Origin: Nanobdellota archaeon
GTDB lineage: Archaea; Nanobdellota; Nanobdellia; Woesearchaeales; JAGLXL01
Assembly: GCA_042577865.1 (NCBI GenBank)
Contig: JBHPDN010000004.1
Span: 1 to 52,922 of the forward strand
Direction of reading: 5' to 3'
DNA length: 52,922 nucleotides
Positions 5,665 to 42,719 of this stretch are shown in pieces. A program made the position numbers and the translations under genes. The notes beneath the pieces were generated by a model. That model saw only the letters and a list, made by a program, of their open reading frames with translations. It had not been told where the DNA came from and made no database searches. The first letter of the stretch is position 1. The number at the start of each line of letters is the position of its first letter.

Positions 5665-7886
5665 AAAAAAGACACCGATTAAACAAGTTTAATCTGGCCT
5701 TTTATAAAAATAAAGGGGGCCAAATAACAATGTTTATTTTATTAGGAATAGTTGTTTTGATAATCTTTGTTTTCTTATTTTACTTAATCAGTTCTGGAAT
5801 AAGCCAGCGATTGGAAACTCAGAGGCAGCAAACTATAATTACTGCATTGGAAGCCAGTTCGATAGATTATTTGACTGGGGAGTGCGCTGTTGATGCCTTG
5901 AAATCTGGTTTGATTTTGATTGGGCAACAAGGCGGCTGGATTTATGAAGAGCAAGGTGGTTTCGACACACCTTTCTTGACTAATTTTAACGGTTCCAATA
6001 TCAGTTATGATGTGAGCTATAACGAGCAAGATCCTAAGGGAGTTAATTTGGCACCGGTTTATCCTTGTCCGCTGCTTTTTTTAACTGATGAACCACGTTT
6101 TTGTGAGTTCCCTTATTACAGCGGTCGGGTTAATTTTGGAAATAGATGGCTGCCTGATTTAGAAGGGGGAGGGGTTTTGACAATCAAAAGACAGCTTGAA
6201 AATTACATCCAAGATTATGTTCAAGACTGCACTGATTTTGAATCGTTAGTCCAGGAAGAAGGGTTAGCTGGTTATGACATTACTTGGGATGAGCCCCAGG
6301 TTCAGGTAATCTTTGGGTTAGATAATATTAGAGTAATTCTTGATTATCCTATCAATGTTATGATCGGAGATGAAGAACCAATTCACCATTTACTTGGTTT
6401 TAAAGCCAAAGAAGAAATAAATTTCCGAGGCATTTACAATTTAGTAAGAGAAGTTTTGGACAAAGATAATAATCTGGCTGATTTTGATATAAGTCAAAAC
6501 ATTTCCCAAGAAAATCTTTGGCGGGCTGGAGAAATGATTTTTGAAGAACACCGATTTGATAACGGAGATGTTTTTATTTTGGAAGACTCCACCACCCAAA
6601 TTTATGGAAATGATTATATCTTTCAATGGGCCAGACAAAACAGGCCGCCGGTTTTGTATTACATAGCCAATAATGCTTCTGAATTAGATCCTTATGATTT
6701 TTTAGTAATTGAAGGTGAAAAGATTGAGATGATTGCCGAGGGAGCAGACCCTGATGAAGATTTGATTAATTTTAGTTTTGACGGCGGTTCCTTGGGAAGT
6801 TTTGATGGCAATATTTTTGAAAAAAATTCAACCAATCTATCTCAGTGGCCAGCTTATAATGTAACAGTTGAAGTACATGATTGGGTTTGGACTGATGAGC
6901 AAAGAGTAAGACTGTTTGTAGATAGAGTTTTAGAACCAGCCTTTACAATTTACAGTTATCCTGAAATTGGAGATGGTTTTATTTCAGTTGAAGATCCTGT
7001 TTATTTGAATGCCAGTCCAACACTTAAATCCCTAGCGCCAAATACACCACACAGTTATTACTGGGAATATTGGGGGCCAGAGGTTGGAACTGGTTTGTTA
7101 GAATATTTTGAAATCGGGGCTGATTCAGAATGTATGGTGGTGCCTGGATTTGAAAATTGTTCTGTTGGAGATTTTGATATATTGAATATAAGGGGCCAGC
7201 ATTTTAATGAGTCTGGTGACACAACCATGTTTTTGACAGTAACTGCTCATTACAGTGACAGGGTTCAAGAGGTAAAAATCCAGAGAGATGTAACTGTCAA
7301 GGAATGTCTGCCTTTAAGAAGTTCCAGTCCTCCTTATCCATATAATATCACAGATCCGTTTTTGTCAGACCACAGTTGTTGCTTGGGAAATGTGGATCAA
7401 CCTCATACCTGGCAACTGGCCAATTCAAGCACAGTTTGTTACAGCCAGAGTGAAAACTGTACAGCGAATCATCCTAAAACAACCAAAGCCACCAATCGTC
7501 ATTGTGATGGTTTGAGAGGAAATACATGTACTGGTGATTTGGATGTAGTGAGCACTTGTGGTTATAATGATTGGACTAATTGTTTTAACATTAATGATAA
7601 TTGTGAAGGTCTTGGTGCTTACCAATATTCTGATGAAGATGAAGGTTGGTGTTATGGAGCAGAAGGCTGCGGCAGTTTCTGCACTCAAGAAGTTGTAGCT
7701 CCTGTGGGTATGAATGGAACTATTGCTTTGAGCCAATTAAACAGTAGTTTTGAATGTGGTTGTGATGTGGGTAATATGGACCAATATTGTGATGATGATT
7801 ATGATGGTGATTTTGAGAAACAATGTCAAAGGCATGGCGGACCTTTTACTTACTATTATAGTTGTGATGAGGTGAGCCAGAGTTAA
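5661..7886 (+). CDS. Prepilin-like N-terminus fused to a roughly 700-aa sequon-rich ectodomain with a Cys-rich C-terminal module (candidate large pilin-anchored adhesin)
   Basis: N-terminus ...FYKNKGG|QITMFILLGIVVLIIFVFLFYLI (charged, G|Q, hydrophobic helix). The C-terminal roughly 190 aa is packed with Cys (SCCLGN, CTGDLDVVSTCGYNDWTNC, CGCDVGNMDQYCDDDYDGD). There are many N-x-S/T sequons. Confidence 0.8.
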   Translation: MKKRHRLNKFNLAFYKNKGGQITMFILLGIVVLIIFVFLFYLISSGISQRLETQRQQTIITALEASSIDYLTGECAVDALKSGLILIGQQGGWIYEEQGGFDTPFLTNFNGSNISYDVSYNEQDPKGVNLAPVYPCPLLFLTDEPRFCEFPYYSGRVNFGNRWLPDLEGGGVLTIKRQLENYIQDYVQDCTDFESLVQEEGLAGYDITWDEPQVQVIFGLDNIRVILDYPINVMIGDEEPIHHLLGFKAKEEINFRGIYNLVREVLDKDNNLADFDISQNISQENLWRAGEMIFEEHRFDNGDVFILEDSTTQIYGNDYIFQWARQNRPPVLYYIANNASELDPYDFLVIEGEKIEMIAEGADPDEDLINFSFDGGSLGSFDGNIFEKNSTNLSQWPAYNVTVEVHDWVWTDEQRVRLFVDRVLEPAFTIYSYPEIGDGFISVEDPVYLNASPTLKSLAPNTPHSYYWEYWGPEVGTGLLEYFEIGADSECMVVPGFENCSVGDFDILNIRGQHFNESGDTTMFLTVTAHYSDRVQEVKIQRDVTVKECLPLRSSSPPYPYNITDPFLSDHSCCLGNVDQPHTWQLANSSTVCYSQSENCTANHPKTTKATNRHCDGLRGNTCTGDLDVVSTCGYNDWTNCFNINDNCEGLGAYQYSDEDEGWCYGAEGCGSFCTQEVVAPVGMNGTIALSQLNSSFECGCDVGNMDQYCDDDYDGDFEKQCQRHGGPFTYYYSCDEVSQS

Positions 7887-7900: not shown

Positions 7901-7932
7901 CAAAAATGGTTTTAAAAGGGAAGTACAAAAAA

Positions 7933-10900
7933 ATGGGAAAAAGAGAGGTGATTTGGTTATTAGTAGGAATATTTTTCTTAGTTTTAGCTAGTTCTGTTTT
8001 GGCCCAACAAGGTTGTTTTACAGAACCAACTTATACTTCTATTTGCACTCAAGTTACTAGAACCAACGCAACAAGCTGGTGCTCTAATTTATGTACAAAT
8101 AACCAAACTTGTTTGAACGATTGTTTAACCAAGTATTTCTTTGAAAATCATGACTGTAGTATCGGCGTCTGTTCAGCTAATGCTGGTTGGTGTACTGATG
8201 TGCCAGCGTGTGCTCAGGTTAATCGTCCAGCTGAATGTGTCGACCGAACCAGTTTTACTAATTCAAGTGTGCCATGTCAGACTGGTTGTTGTATTTTAAC
8301 TTCAGGAACAACTAACCAGTGTGGTTCTCCGGCCTGGCCATTAATGACTTATCAAGAATGTGTCAATAAACAAAACCTTTATTCTGGTTATAGGATTAGT
8401 GTCTTTGATACTTCAGTCACAAGTTCTGCTGCTTGCGCCCAAGTTTGCGGCCAAACAATCGGAGCTCCAGGCAGAATCTCTGGTTATGTGGTCAATTCTT
8501 CTGGAAATGGAATTGGTGGAGCATCTATTGAAGCCTTTTCCATTAAGACGACTTCTTTAGCCAATGGAAGTTATACTTTGACAGCTTTGCCGATTGGTAC
8601 AGCAATTGTCACAGGAACAGCCAATGGATATGGCCAAAGTGTTTCAAGTGTGACAGTTTCTACAGGAGCAACAACTAATCATAATATTACTTTGCCAGCA
8701 GCGAGTTCAGGAAGAATTCATGGTTTTGTAACTTCAGGAGGAAGTCCTCTTGGCGGGGCTTTGGTTTCAGTAAGTGGCGCTGATTATTCTCAAATTTCAA
8801 CTCAAGGTGATGGAAGTTATTCCTTAGATGCTTTGAATTTAGGAAGCTATACGGCCACAGCTTCAGCCAGTGGTTATGGGAGCAGTTCTCAGCAAGTAAG
8901 TTTGACAGATGATGCTATTGAGATTAATTTTAGTTTAAGTTTAAGCCAGCAAGCAACAATCACTGGTTTAATTTTGGATCAGTACAATAGAGCGGTGCCT
9001 TTGGCGACAGTTCGAATTACCGGACCATCGAATTATACTGCTTATACAAATCAAAATGGAGTTTATACCAAAATAGTTTTTGCTAATGATACTTCAACAT
9101 CATATTCTGTTTCTGCCACAAAGGGTGGTTATAACCAAAGTTCAATCCAGACAGTTTCTTTAATTAAAAATGATGTGAAAACGGTCAATCTTAACATGAC
9201 TAAACTGGCATTGGGAGCTTGTGCTGATCCCAATACTTTGCCAGTATCAAATTTCAATGTTAATCATTTACCTGGAGAAAAAGCCCTACAATTGACTTGG
9301 GCAAGCCCATGTCCTGAAGTGACTGGGTATTATATTAACAGAACCAGCGGTGGACAAGAAGTGGCTTTGGCTTATATTCCAGCGACTCAAGCTTTACAAT
9401 TCAAAGATACTGGTGTCAGCTGGAACACCACTTATACATACAAAATCCGGGCTTTTTTTGATGCAGCACCAAGATTCTCTAATACAACTAATACTAATTC
9501 AATCACAACCGGCGATGCTGCCTGTGAAGGTCCATTGAGATATAACAACGGCCAGTATCTTCAGTTTTGCCAAGGGCCATTTAACAGAAGAATTTGTAAT
9601 GCTAATAACAAAGTTGTTGAACCAACAGATGGGACAATAACCAATCCTGTCAACTGTACAGCTTTAGGTAATTTCCGTTTCTGTAGAGGTCCTGATAGTT
9701 TAGGCAAGACTTCCTGCAGTGATGCAACTCATTGTTTAACTAGTCCTGGTCCAGGAGGAGTTTGGGTAACCAGGAACAGTTGTTATGGAAGTAGTAGTGT
9801 GCCTTATCCAAATTACTGTTATTTTGAACCAAGTACGCCTTTTAACTTTTGTTATTCCTGCTCTGCTTTGCCAACTAAGTCTTGTTATGATTATGCTTCC
9901 AGCGATGCCTGCGGAACTAATAACTGTCTACCAGGCAAGAGCTGTACTTGGTGGGTCTCTCCATCAAATGTGGGTTATTGTTATGAGCCTGGTTATGCTG
10001 GAACTGATCAGTGCAGCAGGTGTCAAGTTGGTTGTACGCAAGATGTTTGTGATAAGTTAGGAGACTGTTATGCTAACAGTGCCAATACAGCCTGTTTACG
10101 GTGCAGTCTACCACCTCAGCCATGTGGTTCTTATACCACACCTCAAGAATGTGATGGCGGGCAAGCACCTACTTTTGTCAATGATGTTTTAGTTGCTTCC
10201 CAAGATAGGTGTGGTTATGAAAGGTGTCTTTATCAAAGTGGTTCCTGCGGCAAAGATGGAGATGGAGATGGCAACTTTGAATGCTTAGATCCAAATAAAG
10301 TTTCACCAGCAGAACAAAGTACATGTCAAAGAGACCGGACTCCACCTGTAACTAAGATTCTGCCTTTTGGTTTTATTTCTGTTAATAATGCGACAGGCAA
10401 TATTACTTTCCAAGGAAATGATTCATTTGGTATGCAGAAAGTTGTTTATTGTATTGATAAAACCAACACTTGTTCACCAAGTGCTTCTTTAAATTATCCT
10501 TCTGGTACTGGGGTGAAAACAGTTCAACTTAATTTGGCGACTGATAATCAATTAAGACAAGCACACAGTCAGCACGGTCCAGGAACTTATTATTTGAGAT
10601 TTTATTCCCTTGATAAATATTACAACAGAGAAAATGTTCAAAGCAGAACTCTTAATGTTGATTTGGATGCACCAGTCTTTACTTTGAAAAGCTGTAATGT
10701 TTTAACTAATGCAACTTCTGGTTCAACGATACGCTGCCAGATAGCCACTTCTGAAATGGTGACTTGCAGTGACAGATTAGATACTTATAATGTGGTTTCT
10801 GGATTTACTCCATATGGAGCTTTCCCAAACCAGAGAACTAATTCAGAAATTATTGATTATACTGGCCTGCCAGACGCTCTTTACAAATATGAAATCAATT

Positions 10901-13900
10901 GTACTGATGATTATGGCAATTTAGTAACTTGGGGGCCGCCAGGTATTACAGTCCAAGCTCAAGCAGGAGTCAATAGAGTTTTCCCTCCTAGAGCTTTGAA
11001 TGCCAGCTCATTTAGATTCCAAGTTTATACTCCTCAGATAGCCAGCTGTAGATTAATGAATGGAACAACAGTGATTGAAAGTTTCAGCCCGTCTGCTGGA
11101 AACAATCATACTTCCTCGCAACATACCTTCACTCCTAACTTTTATTATCCAAATTATTGGGCTGATTGCGGCAGTGTGGGGTCTGTTTCATTAGACTTTT
11201 CTGTTGACAGACTTGGTCCGGTGACCAGAGCAAGATTAGTTTCCGGTGGAACACAAGCAATTAAATCAGGAAGCGGTTGGGTGGCAACCTTAACTAATAC
11301 CACTGCTGTAGATTTTGTCTGTACTGACCAACCAACCACTATTTCTGGAGGGTCAGCTGGTTTTGGATGCAATACAACAAAATGGTGTTTAACTAATGGT
11401 AGCAGTTGTACACCTAACAGAATTGATGCAGTGCCATCTGTAACAGCTGATGTAACTCTCTGTTATTACTCTAATGACTCAGGTGGTTATCAGGAAACAT
11501 CAACTAACTGCGGCCAGATACAAATCAGACCAAGTTTTGGCATCAATATAGTCAGTCCAAGTCATGGAGTGAGCAACCAACCAGAATTTGATTTAGAAAT
11601 TAATATTCCAACAGTGGCCACTGATACTTGTAAATGGCAGCCTAATGTCCAGAGTTGGATATTTAATCAGATTACAAATCCCAAATATATATTTACTCCG
11701 GTAACCGGTTCATCATCTAATTACAAGATTGTCAATTTTTCAAGCCAAGTAACTGGCTTCCCTAACAGTTTCAGCAGAGTTCCTGTTTATATTGCCTGTA
11801 ATTCAACAACAGGAATGGTTTCACCAATCGAAAGATTTGAAATTGTTTATGACCCAACCCCTCCAGTGATTACGAGTGCTAGTTTCAACCCAAATCCAAT
11901 TGTCCAAGGCTCTTCAACAACTTTATCTGTGGTGACTGATGATAATACTGTCTGTAAGATTGGCAAAGGAATACCAAGCATCCAGTTTGATGATTATGAC
12001 AGAAACGATTTCAAGACAACTCATACTCATACAATTTACATTTCAGCGCCAGGAGATGATAATAAGACTCATTATTGGAATGTCAGCTGTGAAAATGAAG
12101 CCGGCAACTTTTCATCAATTACCACAGCAGCTTTTGCAGTCGACTTAAGTGCTATGGGGGTGATTGTGTCAACTTCACCAAGCGGAGCTTCCAAAAATAC
12201 TAATATTAATTTGAATGTGATCACCAATAAAGCAGCCACTTGCAGTTACAAACCAAGCAACGCTTATATCCCAATGGCTAATGTAGGAGGGGTGAATCAT
12301 TCCAAGTCTCTGGCCTCTAATTTGAGCCAGGGTCGTTACAGTTATCCGGTTCGCTGTCAATTTGCCCAGCATTATGTTGACAGCTCCATCAACTTTGCTA
12401 TAGACTTAAGTGCACCAAAGATGATTGAAGTTGATGATGGAAATTATTCCTGCGGCTTGGACGAGATTAATCCTAATTTTGAAGCAGAAGATAATATTTC
12501 TTCTGTCGTTGGTTATAATTATCAAATCCTTGAATTAAGCGGCACGACTGTTCTTTACTCTGACAATGTTTCAAGGGCCAATCCAAGAATAGATGATTTG
12601 AATTTAACCCTAAATAAAAATTATTTCCTTAAAGTAAAAGCTAAAGATGAAGTGGGTAACTGGGGTACAGCCAAATCAAGCAATGGGTTCAAGGCTACAG
12701 CTGCCAATTACAGTGGCTGCCGGGAACAAAGAGCTCCAATCATTTCCCTGGTACAAAATGCAACAGCTACAGGTATTAAAGTAACAGTGAAGTGTAATGA
12801 TGATACTGGTTGTATTGGTTTAAGCTATGGTACTTCTGCCTCTTCAATCTGTAATGCTTCTACCAGTTATGTTGGTCCTGTGTTGGTAACGGAAACATCT
12901 TATTTCTGCGCAGAAGCCCGAGATGTTTCAAATAACAAAGGAACCAAACAAGTTCAGGTAATCATTAGTGATACTGATACTGATGGTATTTTAAATCAGT
13001 TTGATCAATGTCCGGGCACTTCTTTAGGTAAGGTGGTGGATGAAAACGGATGTTCAGCATCCCAATTAAATACTGACAGTGATGAAGACGGACTGCCTGA
13101 TGACTGGGAAATTCAATACTCTGCTGAAGATTGTTCTTTTGATCCTCAACAGAATGATACAGATGATGATGGTATCTTGGATGGAGACGAAGATTATGAT
13201 GGTGATGGTTTGTCTAACTATCGTGAGTACCAACAAAATGGAGACCCTTGTTTAGTTAAAGACAGAGATGGAATTCTTGACAGTTGGAGACTGCAGTACT
13301 TTGGCTGCATAGACTGCGCCAATGCAGAAGCAAGCGCTGATCCTGACAATGATGGATTGACTAATCTGCAAGAGTATAATTTAAAGGACACTTATGGATC
13401 AAGTACTCACCCTAATAATCCAGATACTGATGGTGATGGTTATCAAGATAAGGAAGAGGTAGATAATGATTGGGATCCAACTAAATTTAGTATTCCGGGA
13501 GAAGGCACTCCCATCCTGGCTTGGATCTTTTTGATTTTAGGAATATTGATGGTATTGGGTGGTGTGGGTTATGTTTTGATATTGAAAAAAGGAAAGACAC
13601 CTAAACCTCGACCAGTCTATCCAATCAGAGTGGCACCAAGACCAAGACCAGTACCAAGACCTAGGGTTGTGAGGCAGCCAGCGGTTCCTCCAGAAAGAGT
13701 TAAGATTCAAGAGTTGGTGGCCAAAAGAAAAGCAGAACGGGAAAAAGAAAAAAGAACTAAGAGAAGAGAGGCCTTTGAGCCGTTTGTTTCTGGCGACCGT
13801 AAATTGCCCAAAGTCAAAAAGATTATCCAACAAAAAGAAAAACCTGTTTTTGAAAAATTAACAGCAGTGGCCAAACATTATGACGACAAACGTAAGGAAG

Positions 13901-14100
13901 TTTCACCTAAGCTGGCAGCAGGCGAGAAGAAAGTATTTGAGGAATTAACTAAGTTGGTTGGGAATAAAAAGAAAGAAGATGTCAAAAAAGTTTTAGGCAA
14001 GAAAAAGGGAGAGGATATTTTCAATAGATTAGTCAATATTGTGGGCAAAAGAGAAGGAAAAGATGCCTTAAAAGAGTTGAAAAAATATGCTAAAAAATAA
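7933..14100 (+). CDS. Giant multidomain surface protein (about 2055 aa) with a C-terminal TM anchor and a repeat-bearing cytoplasmic tail
   Basis: The ORF is 7906..14100. ATG 7933 is preferred (MGKREVIWLLVGIFFLVLASSVLA|QQG) because the TATA at 7892-7900 ends 6 nt before ATG 7906. By eye it reads as a Cys-rich N-module, 3 carboxypeptidase-regulatory-like repeats and an FN3-like segment (LQLTWASP...YTYKIRA). These are followed by a second Cys-rich module, several Ig-like modules, TSP3-like Ca-binding repeats, a TM at 13513-13584 and a basic tail. I count roughly 40 N-x-S/T sequons by eye. Confidence 0.9.
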   Translation: MGKREVIWLLVGIFFLVLASSVLAQQGCFTEPTYTSICTQVTRTNATSWCSNLCTNNQTCLNDCLTKYFFENHDCSIGVCSANAGWCTDVPACAQVNRPAECVDRTSFTNSSVPCQTGCCILTSGTTNQCGSPAWPLMTYQECVNKQNLYSGYRISVFDTSVTSSAACAQVCGQTIGAPGRISGYVVNSSGNGIGGASIEAFSIKTTSLANGSYTLTALPIGTAIVTGTANGYGQSVSSVTVSTGATTNHNITLPAASSGRIHGFVTSGGSPLGGALVSVSGADYSQISTQGDGSYSLDALNLGSYTATASASGYGSSSQQVSLTDDAIEINFSLSLSQQATITGLILDQYNRAVPLATVRITGPSNYTAYTNQNGVYTKIVFANDTSTSYSVSATKGGYNQSSIQTVSLIKNDVKTVNLNMTKLALGACADPNTLPVSNFNVNHLPGEKALQLTWASPCPEVTGYYINRTSGGQEVALAYIPATQALQFKDTGVSWNTTYTYKIRAFFDAAPRFSNTTNTNSITTGDAACEGPLRYNNGQYLQFCQGPFNRRICNANNKVVEPTDGTITNPVNCTALGNFRFCRGPDSLGKTSCSDATHCLTSPGPGGVWVTRNSCYGSSSVPYPNYCYFEPSTPFNFCYSCSALPTKSCYDYASSDACGTNNCLPGKSCTWWVSPSNVGYCYEPGYAGTDQCSRCQVGCTQDVCDKLGDCYANSANTACLRCSLPPQPCGSYTTPQECDGGQAPTFVNDVLVASQDRCGYERCLYQSGSCGKDGDGDGNFECLDPNKVSPAEQSTCQRDRTPPVTKILPFGFISVNNATGNITFQGNDSFGMQKVVYCIDKTNTCSPSASLNYPSGTGVKTVQLNLATDNQLRQAHSQHGPGTYYLRFYSLDKYYNRENVQSRTLNVDLDAPVFTLKSCNVLTNATSGSTIRCQIATSEMVTCSDRLDTYNVVSGFTPYGAFPNQRTNSEIIDYTGLPDALYKYEINCTDDYGNLVTWGPPGITVQAQAGVNRVFPPRALNASSFRFQVYTPQIASCRLMNGTTVIESFSPSAGNNHTSSQHTFTPNFYYPNYWADCGSVGSVSLDFSVDRLGPVTRARLVSGGTQAIKSGSGWVATLTNTTAVDFVCTDQPTTISGGSAGFGCNTTKWCLTNGSSCTPNRIDAVPSVTADVTLCYYSNDSGGYQETSTNCGQIQIRPSFGINIVSPSHGVSNQPEFDLEINIPTVATDTCKWQPNVQSWIFNQITNPKYIFTPVTGSSSNYKIVNFSSQVTGFPNSFSRVPVYIACNSTTGMVSPIERFEIVYDPTPPVITSASFNPNPIVQGSSTTLSVVTDDNTVCKIGKGIPSIQFDDYDRNDFKTTHTHTIYISAPGDDNKTHYWNVSCENEAGNFSSITTAAFAVDLSAMGVIVSTSPSGASKNTNINLNVITNKAATCSYKPSNAYIPMANVGGVNHSKSLASNLSQGRYSYPVRCQFAQHYVDSSINFAIDLSAPKMIEVDDGNYSCGLDEINPNFEAEDNISSVVGYNYQILELSGTTVLYSDNVSRANPRIDDLNLTLNKNYFLKVKAKDEVGNWGTAKSSNGFKATAANYSGCREQRAPIISLVQNATATGIKVTVKCNDDTGCIGLSYGTSASSICNASTSYVGPVLVTETSYFCAEARDVSNNKGTKQVQVIISDTDTDGILNQFDQCPGTSLGKVVDENGCSASQLNTDSDEDGLPDDWEIQYSAEDCSFDPQQNDTDDDGILDGDEDYDGDGLSNYREYQQNGDPCLVKDRDGILDSWRLQYFGCIDCANAEASADPDNDGLTNLQEYNLKDTYGSSTHPNNPDTDGDGYQDKEEVDNDWDPTKFSIPGEGTPILAWIFLILGILMVLGGVGYVLILKKGKTPKPRPVYPIRVAPRPRPVPRPRVVRQPAVPPERVKIQELVAKRKAEREKEKRTKRREAFEPFVSGDRKLPKVKKIIQQKEKPVFEKLTAVAKHYDDKRKEVSPKLAAGEKKVFEELTKLVGNKKKEDVKKVLGKKKGEDIFNRLVNIVGKREGKDALKELKKYAKK
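8470..9201 (+). repeat. Three tandem carboxypeptidase-regulatory-like (CarboxypepD_reg-type) beta-sandwich domains at protein level
   Basis: GRISGYVVNSSGNGIGGASIEA...NGSYTL..LPIGT..V..TANGYG, then GRIHGFVTSGGSPLGGALVSV...DGSYSLDALNLGSYTATASASGYG, then ATITGLILDQYNRAVPLATVRI...NGVYT...YSVSATKGGYN. Confidence 0.65.
12970..13480 (+). repeat. Thrombospondin type-3-like acidic Ca-binding repeats (D-x-D-x-D-G-x-x-D) at protein level
   Basis: DTDTDGILNQFDQCPG, DSDEDGLPDDWE, DTDDDGILDGDEDYDGDGLSNYREY, DPDNDGLTNLQEY, DTDGDGYQDKEE. Confidence 0.65.
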
Positions 14101-33030: not shown

Positions 33031-34536
33031 ATGAAAATTAAGAAGGAAATAGTTATTTTGCTGGTCATATTCTTATTAACTTTTGGAACAAGATTATTCC
33101 TTGTTTTACCGGCTGAAAACTTTTCTGCCAACGCTTATTTTGATCTGAGACAAGTTGAACATATTAAAGAAACAGGACTGCCTTTATATCAAGATGAGTT
33201 ATCTTACGGGGGAAGGACCTTACTATTTCCACCTTTTTTCCATTACTCTTTAGCTTTATTTAATATTTTTTTACCGTTAGAATTAGTGGGAAAGGTTATT
33301 CCCAACCTAATGATATCCTGCTTGGTTTTTGTTGTTTATTTAATTGCTAAAAAATTAACTAAACAAAAAGAAGCAGCTTTGTTCACAGCATTTATCTCTG
33401 GATTTGTTCCAGTGATCTTTGCCAAAACTATCTTTTCGGTTTCTATCTATTGTTTGATTTTACCTCTGATGTTTTTAGGACTTTATTCTTTGATGAATAT
33501 AGATAAAAAAAAATATGTTTATCTTTCAATTTTAATCATTGTTGTTCTATCTTTGACTAGTTCGATGGCAGTCTTGTTGATTTTAGGTCTGCTGGTTTAT
33601 TTGGTTTTTTCCGAGGTAGAAATCTTAAAGAGGAATAGAAGTGAAACTGAGCTGATTATCTTTGCTACGTTTGTGTTTTTCTGGATACAATTTTTGTTTT
33701 ATAAAAATGCTTTTTTAAGCCACGGTTTAGCTTTAGTGTGGCGTAATATTCCCGATCAGTTATTGGCCCAACAGTTTTCCAGTATCTCTATCTTTTCAGC
33801 GTTGATTCAAATTGGCTTTATCCCCTTTATTTGCGGGATTTTTATAATATATAAGTATGTGCTTAAGGAAAAAAATAAGTATATTTATATGTATGTGTCA
33901 TTGGCCATGGTGGTGACGCTTTTGTTATGGTTAAGGTTAATAGATCCAGTTATGGGTTTGATGTTTTTAGGACTAAGTCTGACAATTTTATTTGCTCAGT
34001 TTTTCAAAATGTTTTTTGATTATCTTAAGAGAACAAAATTCAACCGATTTAAAACAGGAATAATTGTGGTGATGGTTGGGATATTTGTTTTAACTTCAGT
34101 CTGGCCTTCATTTTCTTATGCTTCTGATGAACGGGATAATCTGGTTTCTGATGAGCTAATCCAAGCGTTACAGTGGTTATCCAAAGAAACACCAAAAGAT
34201 TCAACTATCTTAGGTAATTTACGGGAAGGTTATTTGATAACAGCAGTAGCCCAAAGAAAAAATGTGATGGATACCAATTTCTTGTTAATTGGAGATTCCA
34301 ATGAGATTTTTGATGATGTTGAGTTAATTTACTCAACTACTCACCAAATACAGGCAGTGGATTTGCTTAATAAGTATGATGTTGATTACATTATAATTTC
34401 AAATTACACAAAAAACTTTTATGATATTGAATCTTTAGATTATGAAGAAGAATCTTGTATCAAAATAGCTTACAAAACTTCAAAAATTAAAATCTTTAAA
34501 ACCACCTGTAAAATTGAGGAGAATGTATTCGGATGA
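33031..34536 (+). CDS. STT3/AglB-like GT-C membrane protein with a degenerate catalytic motif (WWDxG replaced by GNLREG)
   Basis: About 11 TM segments plus a C-terminal soluble domain. EL1-like AYFDLRQVEHIKETG...YQDELSYGGR. LQWLSKETPKDSTILGNLREGYLITAVAQRKNVMD parallels the STT3 segment WL..NTP.D..V.SWWDYGY.IT..A.R....D. Confidence 0.55.
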   Translation: MKIKKEIVILLVIFLLTFGTRLFLVLPAENFSANAYFDLRQVEHIKETGLPLYQDELSYGGRTLLFPPFFHYSLALFNIFLPLELVGKVIPNLMISCLVFVVYLIAKKLTKQKEAALFTAFISGFVPVIFAKTIFSVSIYCLILPLMFLGLYSLMNIDKKKYVYLSILIIVVLSLTSSMAVLLILGLLVYLVFSEVEILKRNRSETELIIFATFVFFWIQFLFYKNAFLSHGLALVWRNIPDQLLAQQFSSISIFSALIQIGFIPFICGIFIIYKYVLKEKNKYIYMYVSLAMVVTLLLWLRLIDPVMGLMFLGLSLTILFAQFFKMFFDYLKRTKFNRFKTGIIVVMVGIFVLTSVWPSFSYASDERDNLVSDELIQALQWLSKETPKDSTILGNLREGYLITAVAQRKNVMDTNFLLIGDSNEIFDDVELIYSTTHQIQAVDLLNKYDVDYIIISNYTKNFYDIESLDYEEESCIKIAYKTSKIKIFKTTCKIEENVFG

Positions 34537-35903
34537 AACTAACCAATAAAAAGTCAATTTTAATTTTATTTGTATTAACACTTGGGGTTTTGTTATTGCC
34601 TCAAATAATCAGGTTTTTAATGGGAAATCAGCTGTTGATAGGCCACACACCTTATTCTTTTTTGTATTTAATAAAGAATGGGCTTTATTGGCAATCTTCT
34701 TTTTTTCATCCAAGTATTCTGGTGATGACAGGGATTAATTATCTTTCTGATCAATTTTACTGGCAGTTAATTCCAACTCTATTGTTTGGTTTGGGATCCG
34801 TCTTTTTATTCTATAATTTGTTAAGGAAAAGTAAGCTGGAAATTGAACTGCAGTTAGCAGTAGCAGCTTTGTTAATTTTATCCCCTATTTTTATTTTTAC
34901 TTTTGCCACTCTTAACCACTATTCTGCTTTGATATTCTTAATCTTATTGGGTTTTAATTTTTTGATAACTAAAAAATGTAAATACTTGGCCTTGCCTGTT
35001 TTTTTAATTATTCCTTTTTTTGATGTTTTTACAACATTTTTTGTTTTGATTTTACTTTTGATGTATCTTTTCATTTCAAAAGAAAAATTTGTTTACTATA
35101 TATTTGGGTCTTTTTTACTTTTGACAATAATCCTGCAATTTGTTTACCCTCAAATTTTCTATCTGCAGCCAATTTTTCTTGAAAGAAATATTTCGTTTGA
35201 GTTTTTCTCTGATTTAGGAGGATTTCTTGGCTTTGGCTTTTTTCCTTTGCTATTGTCCTTCTTAGGATTGATTATAACTTGGAAACAAAAGAAAATTAAT
35301 TACTTGATTTATTTGTTGATAGTTTTTTTAATTGCCTCCTTTTTTATCCTAGGAGATTATGTTAATATATATTTGAATTTCTTTTTAGTACTTTTAGCCG
35401 GCCAAGGTTTTATCTGGCTATGGAAAAGATCATGGAAGTTTGATTTTTTGAAAAAAATCTCTGTTTTGATCTTAATCTTTGGTATTGTTTTTTCCACTGT
35501 GTCTTATGTTAACCGCCTATCGGTCGAGCCGTTAAATCCTTCGATCGAGGAAAGCATGATTTGGCTCAAAGACCGTACAAGTCCCGGAGGTTTTGTTTTG
35601 TCTCATCCAGAAAAAAGTTTTTGGATTGAAGCTATAGCTGAAAGAAAACCTTTTTTAGATATTTATGGCGATGATTACCAGCAAAGGCTGGAGACTGCAG
35701 AATTAATCTTTTATTCTAGAGATTGGAAATTAACAACTCAATTACTGGAAGAAAACAAAATTAAGTATATTTGGATTGATTCAGAAATGTTAAACGGTCA
35801 GGTTTGGAATGAGGAAGAGGAGGGTTTGTTGTTTTTGTTAAGAGACCCGAGATACAGAAGAATTTACCGTCAGGAAGGAATAGAAATCTGGAGATTTGAA
35901 TAA
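34533..35903 (+). CDS. Second GT-C/STT3-like polytopic membrane protein lacking WWDxG
   Basis: Multi-TM protein. MIWLKDRTSPGGFVLSHPEKSFWIEAIAERKPFLD aligns by eye to the same STT3 segment. ATGA overlap with the upstream gene. Confidence 0.45.
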   Translation: MKLTNKKSILILFVLTLGVLLLPQIIRFLMGNQLLIGHTPYSFLYLIKNGLYWQSSFFHPSILVMTGINYLSDQFYWQLIPTLLFGLGSVFLFYNLLRKSKLEIELQLAVAALLILSPIFIFTFATLNHYSALIFLILLGFNFLITKKCKYLALPVFLIIPFFDVFTTFFVLILLLMYLFISKEKFVYYIFGSFLLLTIILQFVYPQIFYLQPIFLERNISFEFFSDLGGFLGFGFFPLLLSFLGLIITWKQKKINYLIYLLIVFLIASFFILGDYVNIYLNFFLVLLAGQGFIWLWKRSWKFDFLKKISVLILIFGIVFSTVSYVNRLSVEPLNPSIEESMIWLKDRTSPGGFVLSHPEKSFWIEAIAERKPFLDIYGDDYQQRLETAELIFYSRDWKLTTQLLEENKIKYIWIDSEMLNGQVWNEEEEGLLFLLRDPRYRRIYRQEGIEIWRFE

Positions 35904-37205: not shown

Positions 37206-37910
37206 ATGGTAGTGAGGAAAGTCAGCAAAGAAAAATATCTAATCGCCTTTTTAGTAACTTTGGGAATTTTTGGTTTAGGCTTATTATTGGGGTTGGTGAT
37301 TGATGGTAAAAGAGTAGAATATGTCCAATTCCAGGACAAAGTTCAAACATTAGACTTTTCTTCTTTACAGTTGCAGTATCAATTCATTGATGAATTTAAG
37401 GAAAAAAATAATTGTCAGGCCTTAGCTAAAACATTTGATGACAACATTCAAAATTTGGAATTGATACGATCAAAAATTGAAAGTTATCAACAAGATTCAA
37501 CCTTAAGTTATGATGAGTTTGACTTATTGAAACGTGAATATGTTTTAGCTCAAATCAGATATTGGATGCTTTCCAAGAAGACAAAAGAAGTTTGTGGTTT
37601 AGATCATTCCACAATTCTTTACTTTTTTGGACCGGCAAAAGACTGCTCTGATTGTGATAAACAGTCCTTTCTTTTGACTTATTTGAAACAGAAATTTGGT
37701 ATGAATCTCTTAAACTTTGTTTTTGATGGTACTTTTGAGGATGAACCATTAATAGTTCTTTTAAAGAAAACATATGGTGTTGAGATCTACCCCACACTAG
37801 TTATCAACGAAGAAAAATTCGAAGGTTACACTGAAATTAAAACTATCCTTTTAGAAATTTGTGAATCAAGTGGGGAAGAAGTAGATATTTGCGAGAATTA
37901 TATTGAATAA
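37206..37910 (+). CDS. Membrane-anchored thioredoxin-fold-like protein with a CxxC motif (predicted extracytoplasmic)
   Basis: N-in signal anchor KVSKEKYLIAFLVTLGIFGLGLLLGLVI. ILYFFGPAKDCSDCDKQ (CSDC at 37644-37655) followed by ...YGVEIYPTLVINEEKFEGY resembles a Trx/DsbA-type layout. Confidence 0.5.
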   Translation: MVVRKVSKEKYLIAFLVTLGIFGLGLLLGLVIDGKRVEYVQFQDKVQTLDFSSLQLQYQFIDEFKEKNNCQALAKTFDDNIQNLELIRSKIESYQQDSTLSYDEFDLLKREYVLAQIRYWMLSKKTKEVCGLDHSTILYFFGPAKDCSDCDKQSFLLTYLKQKFGMNLLNFVFDGTFEDEPLIVLLKKTYGVEIYPTLVINEEKFEGYTEIKTILLEICESSGEEVDICENYIE

Positions 37911-37912
37911 CT

Positions 37913-38368
37913 TTACTTTGATTTCATCAAGTCCCCAATAGTAAATCCTTCTGAGCTTCCTTTGGGCAAGGGGATCTTTTTTTCTTCTGTCTTTTGAATT
38001 AACTTGATGCCCAGCAGTTTTTCTAATTTTTTAGCCAAGACCAGACTGGGCTCAAAGGAACCAACCTCCATTTTGTGGAGAAGACTTTCTTTTTCATTTA
38101 TTTTTTTAGCAAAGTCTTCTTGACTAAGGCCCATTTTTTCCCTGGCTTGCCTGATTTTTTGAGCATAATCTGAAATGATTGTTTCAGCAGTTTCCAGGGC
38201 AGGTTCTTTTCTCTCTCTTTTAGAGAATTGATGGACTTTTTTAGCTGGTTTTTCTAAAGGCTCTTTTAACTGGCCAAATGAAGCACAATTTTTACAAACC
38301 ATCATCTCAGTACCTTCTACTTCGGCCTTAAAAAGTTTAGTTTCTTTACCACAAAGATCGCAGTTCAT
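37913..38368 (-). CDS. mbf1: Archaeal multiprotein-bridging factor 1 (Zn-ribbon + HTH)
   Basis: N-terminal Zn ribbon CDLCGK...CKNC. C-terminal HTH_3 pattern IRQAREKMGLSQEDFAKKINEKESLLHKMEVG...P....AKKLEKLLGIKL. Confidence 0.8.
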   Translation of the reverse strand: MNCDLCGKETKLFKAEVEGTEMMVCKNCASFGQLKEPLEKPAKKVHQFSKRERKEPALETAETIISDYAQKIRQAREKMGLSQEDFAKKINEKESLLHKMEVGSFEPSLVLAKKLEKLLGIKLIQKTEEKKIPLPKGSSEGFTIGDLMKSK

Positions 38369-38503: not shown

Positions 38504-41500
38504 GTGGAAATTTTGTCGGAGGATGAAGAAATAACCAGAGACACCAGTTCTAAAGAAGAATCTAAAGATAAATTTGACGAGAAAGAAGAAAAGAAGCCTC
38601 AAGAAGAGCTATCTAAAGAGATTGATGGTATTGAAGTAAAAAAGAAAGACAAGATTTTTGTGGTTGAAAAGGAAAAATCTGAAGAAACTGATTCTGACGA
38701 TGATTTGTCATTTGATTTTTCTAAAATTAAAGGGATTTTTAAGAGAAAGAAAAAAGATAAAGAAAAAAAAGAAATTTTTGAAGAAAAGTCTGATGAAGAT
38801 TTGTCTTTGAATTTCAAAGGGATTTTGGGTTTTTTCAATAAAAATAAGAAGTGGTTGATTCCAATATTTTTTATTTTAATTGCGATGTTCTTTGCTGTTT
38901 ATATTAGGGCACAGCCAGCCTGGCTTCCAGTAACTGATAGTTGGGCTGAAGACTCTGTTTATGGCTTTTACAAAGATCAGATTAGGGGCAGTATCAATCA
39001 ACAATATCCTAATCTGCCAGAACAAAATAAACAAACTTTGATTGACCAGGAGTTCCAGAAATTTTTAAAAGATAATAAAGGAATGATGGAGCAGCAAATT
39101 GAAGCTACTTCTGAGAACTTTAAACAACAGTTGAAAGATGATGATGGACAGACTTATTTAATAGCAATAGATCCTTATTACTACCTTAGACATGCCCAAC
39201 ATTATTTAGATCATGGTTATGCTGGAACTGAATATGCTGGAGGCACTACTGCCCAAAAACTAATGTACCCTCATATTGATTTTTCTAAACAAGTTAGTTG
39301 GGATGGTCAAAGAATGGCTCCTGTTGGAGGATTGGCCAAAATGAGTTTTCATACTTATGTAATCAGTTATTTATATAAATTTTTGAGTATCTTTACTGAC
39401 ATCTCCTTGATGGGGGCTGCATTTTGGGTGCCTGTCTTAATTTCGGCTTTGTCTGTTATTCCTGCTTTTTTTATTGGTAGAAGACTTGGTGGTAATATAG
39501 GTGGTTTGTTTGCCGCAGTGATGCTAGCAGTTCATTTAGCTTTTGTTAATAGGACTGTTGCAGGTTTCTCTGACACAGACGCTTATAATGTTTTTTTCCC
39601 TCTTTTGACTGTTTGGTTTTTATTTGAAGCATTTGCAACTAAAGATCTGAAGAAAAGAATTGGTTTGATATTTTTGTCTAGTTTTTCGCTGGGAATTTTT
39701 GCTTATACTTGGAATGGTTGGTGGTATATTTTTAATTTTATCTTGGGTGCGATTGTTGTTTACCTTATTTATTTAATTGCAATCAAAATTAAAAATATCA
39801 AAGAAATATGGAAAGATCAGTCTTTTAAGAAAGCTCTTTTTGTTTTCCTACTATTCGTTTTGATTTCTGGGGTTTTTGTTTCTTTTTTTGCCGGCTTTAA
39901 TACGTTTATTGATGGTTTTTTTCAATCTGGTTTAAGAGCTGTGTTTGGTCTTAAATCTGTGGCTGTATCAACTTTGTGGCCTAATATTAGAACAACAGTA
40001 GCAGAATTAAATGAAGCCTCTTTAAAGACCATCATCAATCAAATTGGGGGAATGTTTTTATTTCTAATAGCTGTAATTGGTGTTTTGTTAACTGTTGTTA
40101 AAAAAGATGAAGAAGGGAAAAGAGATGTTAAATATGCTATTCTTTTGATCATCTGGTTTTTCGGAACTATTTATGCTACGATGAGTGGTATTAGATTTAT
40201 CTTGCTTTTAGTCCCTGCCTTTGCCCTTGGTTTTGGAGCTTTTTGTGGAATCGTTTATACTTATGTTTCAAAATGGATTTCTAACGAACTAAAAGTGCCA
40301 AAGTGGATAACTCAAGTAGTTATTATTGTTTTATTAGCAGTTTTGTTAATATCTCCAATAAAAGCTAGTTATAATCAAGCTGTCAATGGAGAAATTCCTA
40401 GCATGAATGATGCTTGGTATTCCACTTTAACTAAAATAAAAGAAGAGAGCCAACCTGATGCAATTATTAACAGTTGGTGGGACTTTGGCCACTGGTTTAT
40501 CACTTTGGCCGACCGATCAGCTACGTTTGATGGAGCTGGCCAAGATAAACATATGGCTCATTGGATAGGGAAAAGTTTATTGACTAAAGATGAGAAAACA
40601 ACGATTGGCATATTACGAATGGTCGACTGTGGCAATAACAACGCTTTTTGGACTTTGGACAAAATTTTTGATGACACCCCTAAAACAATTGATGTTTTGA
40701 ATGAAATTGTTGTTGAGGATAAGGAAGAAGCAATGACAGTTCTTAATGGATATGGTTTGGATGCTGAACAAATTGCTTCTGTGCTTAAATATACACATTG
40801 CCAGCCCCCAGAAGATTATTACATCACTTCTGATGATATGGTTGGTAAGGCTGGTGTTTGGGGTCACTTTGGCAGTTGGGACTTCCATAGGGCAGAAATG
40901 TACCAACAAACAAACAGTTTAGATCCGATTGAAGCAAGCTCCCTTTTAATGGAAAATTACAATCTTTCTGAAGAAGAAGCTGATAACATTTACTACCAAA
41001 TACAAAACACCGAAGCTAATCGTTGGATTAGCCCTTGGCCTGGTTATATGGGAACTGATCTTTGTAGAAAGGAAAATAATGAACTTACCTGTAACTTTAA
41101 TATTCAAGATCAAGAAATAATTATGGGTATTGATTTAAATACGTTAAATACTACAGTAAAAAATACCCAAGATCTCGCCTATCCTAATTCATTGGTTTAT
41201 GTGACTGAAGATTCTATTGCAGAGAAAGAGTTTTCTGGAAACCTTGCTGGTTTTTCTTTGGTTTTGGTTCCTGAAGGAAATAATTTTAGGGCAGTAATGG
41301 CTGATCCCTTACAATCTAAAAGCATGTTTGCCCAACTTTTCTTTTTTAGAGGCCATGGATTAGAGTGTTTTGATTTATTTGATGAACAGAGACAAGTGAC
41401 TGGAGGGATGATTTATGTTTGGAAAGTTGATTGGAGCTGCTCTTCTGAAAATAATATTTTTTTCCAAGAGCCGGAAGAAATAGTTGAAGAGGAAATTAGG

Positions 41501-41785
41501 GCCAGCCATATCTTGATTAGTACTGATGATAAGACTGACGAAGAAGCTTTGGAATTGATTCAAGAGATTAAAGACCAAATAAATGAAACTAATTTTGCTG
41601 AATTGGCTGAACAGTATTCAGAAGGCCCTTCTGCAGTTAATGGTGGTGATTTGGGTTGGTTTGGTAAGGGGATGATGGTTAAGGAATTTGAAGAAGCTGC
41701 TTTTAGTTTGGAAATAGGAGAAGTTTCTGAGCCGGTGAAAACTCAGTTTGGCTGGCATTTGATTGTGGTGGTTGATAGGAGGTAA
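38504..41785 (+). CDS. aglB: Oligosaccharyltransferase AglB/STT3 with a charged N-terminal extension and a C-terminal parvulin-type PPIase domain
   Basis: GTG start (no in-frame ATG before the first TM). EL1 motif IDPYYYLRHA. WWDFGHW at 40475-40489. About 13 TM segments. The last roughly 95 aa read as a PpiC/parvulin domain. Confidence 0.9.
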   Translation: MEILSEDEEITRDTSSKEESKDKFDEKEEKKPQEELSKEIDGIEVKKKDKIFVVEKEKSEETDSDDDLSFDFSKIKGIFKRKKKDKEKKEIFEEKSDEDLSLNFKGILGFFNKNKKWLIPIFFILIAMFFAVYIRAQPAWLPVTDSWAEDSVYGFYKDQIRGSINQQYPNLPEQNKQTLIDQEFQKFLKDNKGMMEQQIEATSENFKQQLKDDDGQTYLIAIDPYYYLRHAQHYLDHGYAGTEYAGGTTAQKLMYPHIDFSKQVSWDGQRMAPVGGLAKMSFHTYVISYLYKFLSIFTDISLMGAAFWVPVLISALSVIPAFFIGRRLGGNIGGLFAAVMLAVHLAFVNRTVAGFSDTDAYNVFFPLLTVWFLFEAFATKDLKKRIGLIFLSSFSLGIFAYTWNGWWYIFNFILGAIVVYLIYLIAIKIKNIKEIWKDQSFKKALFVFLLFVLISGVFVSFFAGFNTFIDGFFQSGLRAVFGLKSVAVSTLWPNIRTTVAELNEASLKTIINQIGGMFLFLIAVIGVLLTVVKKDEEGKRDVKYAILLIIWFFGTIYATMSGIRFILLLVPAFALGFGAFCGIVYTYVSKWISNELKVPKWITQVVIIVLLAVLLISPIKASYNQAVNGEIPSMNDAWYSTLTKIKEESQPDAIINSWWDFGHWFITLADRSATFDGAGQDKHMAHWIGKSLLTKDEKTTIGILRMVDCGNNNAFWTLDKIFDDTPKTIDVLNEIVVEDKEEAMTVLNGYGLDAEQIASVLKYTHCQPPEDYYITSDDMVGKAGVWGHFGSWDFHRAEMYQQTNSLDPIEASSLLMENYNLSEEEADNIYYQIQNTEANRWISPWPGYMGTDLCRKENNELTCNFNIQDQEIIMGIDLNTLNTTVKNTQDLAYPNSLVYVTEDSIAEKEFSGNLAGFSLVLVPEGNNFRAVMADPLQSKSMFAQLFFFRGHGLECFDLFDEQRQVTGGMIYVWKVDWSCSSENNIFFQEPEEIVEEEIRASHILISTDDKTDEEALELIQEIKDQINETNFAELAEQYSEGPSAVNGGDLGWFGKGMMVKEFEEAAFSLEIGEVSEPVKTQFGWHLIVVVDRR
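41486..41782 (+). other. Parvulin (PpiC-type) peptidyl-prolyl isomerase domain fused to the AglB C-terminus
   Basis: IRASHILISTDD...ALELIQEIKDQI....FAELAEQYSEGPSAVNGGDLGWFGKGMMVKEFEEAAFSLEIGEVSEPVKTQFGWHLIVV is the canonical parvulin pattern (H-I-L ... S.....GG.LG.F..G.M...F....F.L..G..S..V.T..G.H.I). Confidence 0.8.
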
Positions 41786-41789
41786 TAAA

Positions 41790-42719
41790 ATGGATTTATC
41801 TATAGTGATTCCAACTTATAATGAAAGAGAAAATGTTTTTTTGTTGTATCAACACATAAAAAAAGCTCTTGATCAAATTACTAATTCTTATGAAGTAATC
41901 TTTGTTGATGATGGCAGCAGAGACGGGACGTTTAGAGAACTTGAAAACATACATAAAAAAGATAAGAAAATTAAAATTATTAAATTTAGAAAAAATTTTG
42001 GGCAAACAGCAGCGATGGATGCTGGTTTTAAACAGGCAAAAGGTAGAGTTATTATTCCTTTAGACGCTGATTTGCAGAATGATCCCAAAGATATCCCTCG
42101 GTTATTAGAGAAGATAAATGAAGGTTATGATGTGGTGTGTGGTTGGAGGAAAAACCGAAAAGATACATTAATGAAACATTTGGTTTCAAGAGGAGCCAAT
42201 CTTTTAAGGAAAATTATTCTTGATGACAAAATTCACGATTCAGGCTGTACTTTGAAAGCATATAAAAAGGAATGTTTTGAAGATTTAGATTTACATGGAG
42301 AAATGCATAGGTTTATTCCAGCTTTATTGATGTGGAAAGGTTTCAAAGTTACTGAAGTTCCAGTAAAGCACCATAAAAGGAGATTTGGCCAAACAAAATA
42401 TGGGATTAAAAGAACTGTGAAAGGTTTTTTGGATATGTTAATAATCCGTTTTTGGAAACAGTATTCGGCCAGACCAATCCATTTGTTTGGGAGTTTAGGA
42501 ATGTTATCTATCTTTTTGGGATTTTTAATCGGACTTTACTTGACTATTTTAAAAATATTTTTTGGTCAAGGAATTGGCAATAGGCCTTTACTCCTTTTAT
42601 CAATTTTATTAATCATTGTGGGTGTTCAATTTTTTATGTTTGGCATCATGACCGATATTATGGTTAAGAGCTACTATCAGAAGGAAAAACCATATAAAAT
42701 AGAGAAAATATCACTATGA
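41790..42719 (+). CDS. Polyprenyl/dolichyl-phosphate glycosyltransferase (GT2, GtrB/ArnC/DPM1-like, two C-terminal TM helices)
   Basis: ATG 41790 follows the SD AGGAGGT (41777-41783). LSIVIPTYNEREN, FVDDGSRDGT, PLDADLQNDP, and C-terminal TM helices IHLFGSLGMLSIFLGFLIGLY and LLLLSILLIIVGVQFFMFGIM. Confidence 0.85.
   Translation: MDLSIVIPTYNERENVFLLYQHIKKALDQITNSYEVIFVDDGSRDGTFRELENIHKKDKKIKIIKFRKNFGQTAAMDAGFKQAKGRVIIPLDADLQNDPKDIPRLLEKINEGYDVVCGWRKNRKDTLMKHLVSRGANLLRKIILDDKIHDSGCTLKAYKKECFEDLDLHGEMHRFIPALLMWKGFKVTEVPVKHHKRRFGQTKYGIKRTVKGFLDMLIIRFWKQYSARPIHLFGSLGMLSIFLGFLIGLYLTILKIFFGQGIGNRPLLLLSILLIIVGVQFFMFGIMTDIMVKSYYQKEKPYKIEKISL

Follow-up and report, generated by a model that had tools for sequence, protein, structure and literature searches.

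Why would an oligosaccharyltransferase end in a prolyl-isomerase domain? The question is raised by the aglB gene of a contig of 52,922 nucleotides (JBHPDN010000004.1, assembly GCA_042577865.1), which was analyzed as a complete contig and is called the window here. It comes from a tiny DPANN archaeon of the Woesearchaeota type (phylum Nanobdellota, order Woesearchaeales), whose assembled genome is 0.87 Mb and 88% complete. A first-pass annotation had read the gene product as the single-subunit oligosaccharyltransferase (OST) AglB fused to a C-terminal parvulin, a peptidyl-prolyl cis-trans isomerase (PPIase). The fusion is genuine, and that single case is one instance of a wider pattern, which includes FKBP fusions at the same site and swapping of the modules. 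It seems probable that the window's protein is a bifunctional OST with a tethered foldase acting on newly exported chains beside the glycosylation site.

N-glycosylation requires an unfolded acceptor, and glycosylation and folding therefore compete. Eukaryotes handle this competition with accessory OST subunits, namely Ost3/6-MagT1, which are thioredoxin-like, and FKBP11-CCDC134, observed recently at OST-A. We know of no comparable device described for prokaryotic single-subunit OSTs and of no PPIase domain on any described AglB, PglB, or STT3. The first-pass annotation was likewise aware of no OST-PPIase fusion, and our full-text literature search, with subscription-only literature and the InterPro architecture tables outside its scope, found none described. 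A survey of PPIases in 196 archaeal genomes reported only long-type FKBPs for Nanoarchaeota, found parvulins only in Euryarchaeota and Thaumarchaeota, and did not mention STT3 (PMC8530231); the AglB-parvulin protein corrects that published picture of Nanoarchaeota without parvulins.

An oligosaccharyltransferase and a parvulin in one reading frame

In agreement with the proposed fusion, Pfam places both families within one uninterrupted open reading frame (ORF): STT3 (PF02516) at residues 210-616 (E 2.7e-46, 159 bits against a curated cut-off of 24.5) and, at the C terminus, Rotamase_3 (PF13616) at residues 995-1092 (E 4.5e-30, 105 bits) and Rotamase (PF00639) at residues 1002-1089 (E 1.3e-27, 97 bits). 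The matches of the core in NCBIfam and the PDB are to PglB and STT3, and the motifs DPYYYLR (from residue 223) and WWDFG (nucleotides 40475-40489) lie exactly where they had been placed in what was called a canonical STT3 core. The protein has no exact match to the DK (DxxKxxx[MI]) or MI motif, which contacts the +2 Ser/Thr; at the expected DK position there is a conserved block, S776-D-D-M-V-G-K782-A-G-V-W786 (extending to W792), with one extra residue, giving D778-x3-K782. Judged by its intact motifs, the AglB core is a bona fide single-subunit OST, for which oligosaccharyl transfer is predicted.

For the C-terminal ~100 residues, the best sequence matches in the PDB and NCBIfam are the parvulin domains of PrsA and SurA (E about 1e-20 to 1e-22). 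With 91 homologs as input, AlphaFold2 gives a model with a mean predicted local distance difference test score (pLDDT) of 88.7 and a predicted template-modelling score (pTM) of 0.83; disorder is confined to residues 1-100 (pLDDT <50 at 1-70 and 81-99), with a dip at the linker that joins the two parts. This linker varies from 4 to 41 residues among relatives. In Foldseek, the modelled core matched PglB (template-modelling score 0.70), with further matches to Archaeoglobus fulgidus AglB and eukaryotic STT3, and the C terminus matched a PrsA parvulin fragment (6XD8; score 0.83, root mean square deviation 2.4 Å, 49% identity). The order of secondary-structure elements in the modelled C terminus agrees with the parvulin fold.

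The module is also the most conserved segment of the protein, with a mean pairwise identity of 60%; the figure is 48% in the external part of AglB and 42% in its membrane part. H1002 and H1085 of the parvulin tetrad are invariant in 113 of 113 fused relatives, as are M1058, F1062, and F1082, and position 1080 is always Thr or Ser. On this pattern of conservation, the parvulin module is under strong purifying selection.

The C-terminal, WWDYG-bearing side is extracytoplasmic in all solved OSTs. By hydropathy, no transmembrane segment follows residue 619 of the window's protein (the highest 19-residue Kyte-Doolittle mean is 0.89); with no hydrophobic segment past transmembrane helix 13 (TM13), everything from WWDFG through the C terminus lies on one side of the membrane. 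Homology and hydropathy taken together, the parvulin domain must face the outside of the cell, and the extracytoplasmic PPIase of the first-pass annotation is upheld by this topology and by the fold matches to OSTs. The six conserved cysteines of the external AglB part (709, 766, 854, 863, 955, and 979) are compatible with such a location.

Profile searches of the whole genome returned a single STT3, this gene, and a single parvulin, located in the same ORF; in the 88% of the genome that is assembled, no cyclophilin and no VKOR were found. There are two FKBPs (148 and 259 amino acids), both without a hydrophobic segment and therefore cytosolic. Because there is no other parvulin, no cyclophilin, and no FKBP with a transmembrane segment, the AglB-fused parvulin is the only candidate external PPIase domain of the genome, with the reservation that 12% of the genome is missing.

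Parvulin and FKBP modules across the order

A fusion seen in one draft assembly might be an artefact of assembly or gene calling that joins two adjacent genes. This is a negligible concern here. A search with residues 640-1093 gave more than 110 clusters, among the 120 listed, that carry STT3 plus rotamase at 45-57% identity and full coverage. Their sources are separate JGI, ENA, NCBI, and Logan assemblies, and the same in-frame architecture is present in 28 of the 80 closest species-representative genomes. Recurrence on this scale excludes a missed stop or frameshift, and does so with more force than mapped reads could. The other 52 genomes have no parvulin within 4 kb on either side of aglB (one of them, at locus L087, is in fact fused, with the gene cut by a contig end), and a split-gene search of the same 4-kb flanks found a parvulin as a separate gene adjoining aglB in 0 of the 80 loci. 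The unfused state therefore reflects loss or absence of the module, and gene fission as its origin is ruled out; what lies downstream of the unfused P0119 and P0109 genes is DXP synthase and a GT2 glycosyltransferase. Those clusters that have names are called "peptidylprolyl isomerase" or "STT3 domain-containing protein" of Nanoarchaeota/Woesearchaeota, and hundreds of database entries named only "peptidylprolyl isomerase" are the OST of their organism.

Frequencies were taken from 401 genomes sampled across the phylum, 355 of them with STT3, and are unbiased in this sense; the proteins in the large tree were picked for their resemblance to fused queries, which leaves unfused forms under-represented there. 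AglB and parvulin share one frame of 937-1218 amino acids in 23 of the 355 AglB-bearing genomes, all within the window's order and spread over at least nine families. A survey of AglB architectures had been called for by the first-pass annotation, and FKBP fusions came to light as well, beginning with one of the relatives first counted as unfused. At L122:3539-6868 (+), an FKBP_C domain (PF00254, E 7e-18) occupies the AglB C terminus where the window's protein has its parvulin, and when the L122 junction was used as a query, all 120 listed clusters (P0121-P0240) combined STT3 with FKBP_C, at 39-100% identity. In the 401 genomes there are 37 full-length AglB-FKBP genes and ~3 truncated by contig ends, again all in the window's order. 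The pocket residues of the fused FKBPs are conserved, and the two kinds of fusion have an equal median linker, 6-7 residues beyond the AglB core profile. Altogether, a PPIase is tethered to AglB in roughly 60 of 355 AglB-bearing genomes (~17%).

When AglB proteins are labelled by their module (parvulin, FKBP, or none), a tree of 281 cores demands at least 21 switches of label. The tree has a large clade of each kind, FKBP and parvulin, with scattered losses. Within the parvulin clade, FKBP subclades branch with strong local support, which indicates that modules have been swapped.

Where did the parvulin come from? The parvulins of the phylum fall into three groups: proteins of 91-94 amino acids without a transmembrane segment, proteins of 330-520 amino acids, and the AglB fusions. 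The middle group, with one N-terminal transmembrane helix ahead of SurA_N (PF13624, E about 5e-17) and a parvulin, is built like PrsA and SurA. A tree of the parvulin domains groups the fused parvulin with these PrsA-like proteins at weak support (bootstrap 50) and was dropped as proof of origin. We relied instead on a 4+3-residue insertion common to the fused parvulin and one subtype of the PrsA-like proteins, from which it is likely that the fused module derives from the membrane-anchored PrsA/SurA-type foldases of the order. Pfam finds no SurA_N match in the AglB-parvulin fusion. It would appear that the parvulin alone was transferred to AglB and SurA_N left behind, which mildly favors a proline-directed over a general chaperone role. 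Some fused proteins (P0047, P0116, P0118, L107, and L087) carry the short parvulin type that lacks the insertion, which suggests that AglB acquired a parvulin more than once. The overlap of fused and free long-type parvulins is 0 against 1.6 expected; this hint of mutual exclusion is not significant and was not used.

One of the membrane-anchored SurA_N-parvulin proteins, a 519-amino-acid ORF at L013 (genome G398), has a C-terminal thioredoxin-like CxxC domain (PF13462, E 1.6e-5) and would be an external protein that unites a thiol-disulfide module with a prolyl isomerase. Fusion of AglB to VKOR was not seen in a sample of 381 genomes of the order, where all VKOR frames are 506 amino acids or shorter, and the 401 genomes contain no AglB-cyclophilin fusion. 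Cyclophilins are free proteins of 150-280 amino acids with one exception, L124:2303-4549 (-) in genome G332. The membrane protein encoded there, 749 amino acids long and polytopic, matches PMT_2 (GT-C-like) weakly and ends, after a K/E/D/Q-rich linker, in a strongly matching cyclophilin domain (PF00160, E 2e-55). It has neither an AglB core match nor WWDxG. With it, fusion to a GT-C-like membrane protein extends to a third PPIase family.

What a tethered prolyl isomerase might do

If both halves of the protein are active, the AglB core would transfer a lipid-linked glycan to the Asn of N-x-S/T sequons in unfolded chains emerging from the membrane, and the short linker would hold the parvulin within a few nanometres of that site. 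We propose that the parvulin would bind proline-containing segments of the same newly exported chains and accelerate, or at least chaperone, folding that is limited by prolyl cis/trans isomerization, meeting its substrates right after glycosylation or in competition with it. The architecture is certain; from it we infer an enzymatic or holdase activity, clients among S-layer, pilin, and large Cys-rich surface proteins, and a kinetic coupling with glycosylation. One archaeal order has repeatedly attached a prolyl isomerase covalently to its OST. That two unrelated folds, whose common property is prolyl isomerization, were joined again and again to the same AglB terminus, with swapping and with strong purifying selection, is a convergence pointing to real functional coupling, and argues that selection has favored a PPIase on the outer side of the OST.

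Several observations weigh against this proposal. The first-pass annotation had described a complete PpiC/parvulin domain from nucleotide 41486 (residue 995). The fold is complete, but the tetrad is not the canonical one: the fourth position, normally Cys or Asp, is G1041 in a loop reading SEGPSA, so that G-H-H-T stands in place of C/D-H-H-T/S. The alignment at G1041 is secure, because relatives with loops of equal length read SECPSS and those with one more residue read SEDPGS, as in PrsA. Among the 113 fused relatives, the position is Asp in 79, Cys in 9, and Gly in 25, and on the AglB tree these states are intermingled. Among the order's free parvulins, the membrane-anchored ones include some with Gly, and the small cytosolic ones all keep Cys. 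In NmPin, a thaumarchaeal parvulin, the D42A variant leaves 0.7% activity and D42C retains full activity (PMC4922055); by analogy with the former, classical PPIase turnover of the window's Gly copy may be low. It is, from its sequence, a member of the parvulin family without the canonical catalytic tetrad. Even at the human OST, the associated FKBP11 appears to be an adaptor with a buried active site (PMC12804085). The phylogeny is a further difficulty. In an IQ-TREE analysis of 81 cores, the fused/unfused label changes at least 13 times, with 11-12 of the changes forced by well-supported branches, and close relatives have dropped the module on at least 11-13 occasions; it is missing from L047 and L050, which at 56% identity stand nearest to the window's protein. 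With losses so frequent and the nearest relatives unfused, the module is dispensable, helpful rather than essential.

PrsA and SurA themselves function in vivo largely independently of PPIase activity. Together with the glycine in the window's protein, in 25 of its 113 relatives, and in free PrsA-like homologs, with the residual activity of NmPin D42A, and with the proposed adaptor role of FKBP11, this would fit a parvulin fold that is kept in a non-catalytic capacity, either as a holdase or peptide-binding arm that keeps acceptors unfolded near the OST and raises sequon occupancy, or as an adaptor that recruits a surface factor. We regard this as rather unlikely, given that most relatives keep Asp and a few keep Cys, and that the rest of the pocket is intact even where glycine is present: H1002, H1085, T1080, M1058, F1062, and F1082 are each found in 25 of 25 Gly-type modules. 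E1040 is kept in 23 of these 25, more strictly than in the Asp type, and could compensate for the absent Cys or Asp. Moreover, SurA_N, which carries the holdase function in PrsA and SurA, is absent from the fusion, and the activity that the two unrelated recruited folds share is that of a prolyl isomerase.

It is also conceivable, if improbable, that the fusion serves only as a membrane anchor. A tiny cell without a wall must tether an external foldase, and AglB would be a convenient and abundant host, with no coupling to glycosylation. The ease with which the module is lost would suit this explanation, as would the transmembrane anchors of all free parvulins assigned to the long type in the order and the relative in which a cyclophilin is attached to a different GT-C-like membrane protein. 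However, those free foldases already own a single-helix anchor and need no new one; two PPIase families were repeatedly joined to a single enzyme, at one and the same end and through an equally short linker, and the only other host found is likewise GT-C-type and glycosyltransferase-like. Action of the PPIase in cis on AglB itself, for example by isomerizing a proline in external loop 5 (EL5) or in the C-terminal domain as a state switch, is very improbable; a short linker and a high pTM are compatible with a docked domain, but the linker reaches 40 or more low-complexity residues in some relatives, many close relatives do without the module while their AglB cores are unchanged, and no conserved AglB proline was identified as the target.

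How does such a protein compare to known systems? The window's protein shares with AglB, PglB, and STT3 (GT-C fold, GT66; Campylobacter lari PglB 3RCE/6GXC, A. fulgidus AglB 3WAJ/7E9S) the membrane core, the Asp of external loop 1 (EL1), DxD, the TIxE of EL5, a WWDYG-type motif, and the external domain; it differs from them by the C-terminal parvulin, a disordered cytosolic N terminus of 117 residues, and a DK-like block one residue longer. With PrsA of Gram-positive and SurA and PpiD of Gram-negative bacteria it has in common a membrane-tethered parvulin (42-49% identical to Bacillus PrsA), extracytoplasmic by topology inference, and a presumed action on newly exported unfolded proteins. Unlike them, it has no SurA_N/PrsA chaperone domain, uses an enzyme as its anchor in place of a lipid or single transmembrane helix, and has glycine in the tetrad. 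Because SurA_N is lacking, AglB-parvulin falls, by its domain content, outside the PrsA/SurA family and shares only the parvulin module and the location. The single-domain thaumarchaeal parvulins NmPin and CsPinA (PMC4922055) are likewise archaeal, lie at the outer membrane face, have surface-layer proteins as proposed clients, and use the C/D-H-H-T/S framework, but NmPin is a free protein of 91 amino acids that attaches to the membrane through a lysine patch, with Asp in its tetrad, whereas the window's domain is fused to AglB and has Gly.

Closest in function are the eukaryotic Ost3p/Ost6p and TUSC3/MagT1 (PMC4137057) and FKBP11 (PMC12804085, PDB 9N9J), which likewise put a folding-catalyst fold beside the STT3 active site, where it works on or close to the chains that receive glycans. 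The thioredoxin-like Ost3/6-MagT1 proteins improve glycosylation of Cys-proximal sites (PMC4137057), and FKBP11 is a membrane-anchored PPIase-family protein at the OST-A translocon (PMC12804085). These are separate, non-covalent subunits with other folds or chemistries, whereas in the window's protein the catalytic subunit itself contains the factor, covalently, as one of its domains. The resemblance is an analogy, with no common descent shown. The AglB-FKBP proteins of sister Woesearchaeales (L122/P0121; NCBI name "FKBP-type peptidyl-prolyl cis-trans isomerase," 1077 amino acids) share the AglB family, the attachment point, the short linker, and an external PPIase, but use the unrelated FKBP_C fold (PF00254) and belong mostly to other families of the order, with some nested in the parvulin-fused clade.

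Going a step further, one can envision, as a tentative proposal that we hold to be possible at best, that the woesearchaeal AglB is a modular, single-polypeptide "glycosylate-and-fold" platform. Its C terminus would dock interchangeable parvulin or FKBP modules, acquired, swapped, and lost many times, which would act on the chain segment leaving the translocon and the OST. It would correspond, in prokaryotes, to the eukaryotic OST together with the folding subunits that accompany it (Ost3/6-MagT1 and FKBP11) and, if so, would offer a simple and genetically compact test of folding catalysis versus sequon occupancy. In any case, a single polypeptide that exists naturally with and without the module, in variants of about 56% identity, makes a minimal system for experiments on whether a tethered foldase affects site occupancy or folding yield. 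It may also be of interest for glyco-engineering, for example in PglB- or AglB-foldase chimeras.

Gene features and neighborhood

The features of the gene and of its downstream neighbor are collected in Table 1.

Table 1. Features of the aglB-parvulin gene and its downstream neighbor in the window
Feature	Coordinates	Strand	Remarks
aglB-parvulin ORF, whole	38504..41785	+	GTG start, 1093 aa (amino acids) plus stop, no internal stop
Cytosolic N-terminal extension, residues 1-117	38504..38854	+	K/E/D-rich, predicted disordered; Lys-rich at its end, before TM1
STT3/AglB transmembrane core, residues 118-620	38855..40363	+	Last transmembrane helix (TM13) ~601-619
EL1 motif DPYYYLR, starting at residue 223	39170..39190	+	D223 invariant in 116 homologs
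D357-T-D359	39572..39580	+	Aligns with D154-x-D156 of C. lari PglB (HMMER); invariant in 116 homologs
EL5 motif TVAE, T498-E501	39995..40006	+	Aligns with TIxE of PglB; E501 invariant in 116 homologs
WWDFG, residues 658-662	40475..40489	+	WWDYG-type, aligns with WWDYG of PglB; invariant in 116 homologs
External C-terminal globular domain, residues 621-975	40364..41428	+	DK-like block S776..W792, six conserved Cys
Linker, residues 976-996	41429..41491	+	~20 residues, contains DWSCSSENNIFFQEPEEIVEEE; pLDDT 71-77
Parvulin (PpiC-type) domain, residues 997-1092	41492..41779	+	Pfam, model, alignment
Tetrad codons	H1002 41507-41509; G1041 41624-41626; T1080 41741-41743; H1085 41756-41758	+	
GT2 glycosyltransferase	41790..42719	+	Polyprenyl-phosphate sugar synthase type, directly downstream of aglB

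A GT2 gene follows aglB directly on the same strand in 52 of the 80 related loci. Three large proteins with N-terminal anchors are encoded upstream, all on the plus strand (1450-5361, 5661-7886, and 7906-14100; 1303, 741, and 2064 amino acids). They had been described as sequon- and proline-rich surface proteins. They are rich in sequons, with 1.1-2.2 per 100 residues against 0.7-1.3 expected from composition and up to 3 times expectation; the description does not hold for proline, which makes up 4.5-5.6% of their residues. Cysteine accounts for 3.2-4.0%. On these features, it is likely that the three are major surface glycoproteins, and they are plausible clients of AglB-parvulin.

The gene at 37206-37910 (+), two genes upstream of aglB, codes for a protein that is anchored in the membrane, contains a CSDC motif, and weakly matches a thioredoxin fold (TraF, E 8.5e-4); 6 of 80 related loci have a homolog upstream of aglB in the same orientation. 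The protein is a candidate for the role of external disulfide catalyst in the Cys-rich exoproteome of this genome, which has no VKOR. Between it and aglB, and divergent from the latter, lies a zinc-ribbon plus HTH_3 (MBF1/HVO_2718-like) regulator (37913-38368, -); the divergent pairing recurs in 12-13 of 80 related loci, and also at the unfused P0109 and P0119. At 33031-35903 (+), two polytopic membrane proteins of 501 and 456 amino acids are encoded in tandem. Profiles give no support for reading them as STT3-like: they have no Pfam match at E<=1e-3, and the whole-genome STT3 search yields only aglB at 38504.

Some database labels in this group of proteins look wrong. TPA co-assembly records titled "uncultured Methanosarcinales archaeon" (L047, L048, L051, L053, and ~25 more loci) contain a Woesearchaeales-type AglB with 40-53% identity to that of the window, and the labels "Firmicutes," "Dojkabacteria," and "bacterium" on P0134, P0145, and P0157 look like those of mislabelled or misbinned woesearchaeal contigs.

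Both ends of AglB have features of their own. In the N-terminal extension, the motif IDFSxxKxKxKxxFK (a consensus of 91 sequences) is kept across relatives despite the low complexity that surrounds it. At the other end, an acidic low-complexity tail with a short end motif (...FEIKI, ...VEIEI, ...FEIEI, or ...IEIQ) closes many AglB relatives. It follows the parvulin in P0007, P0010, P0062, P0079, P0112, and P0115, is present in the unfused L065, L047, and L050, and may be a sorting or interaction tag.

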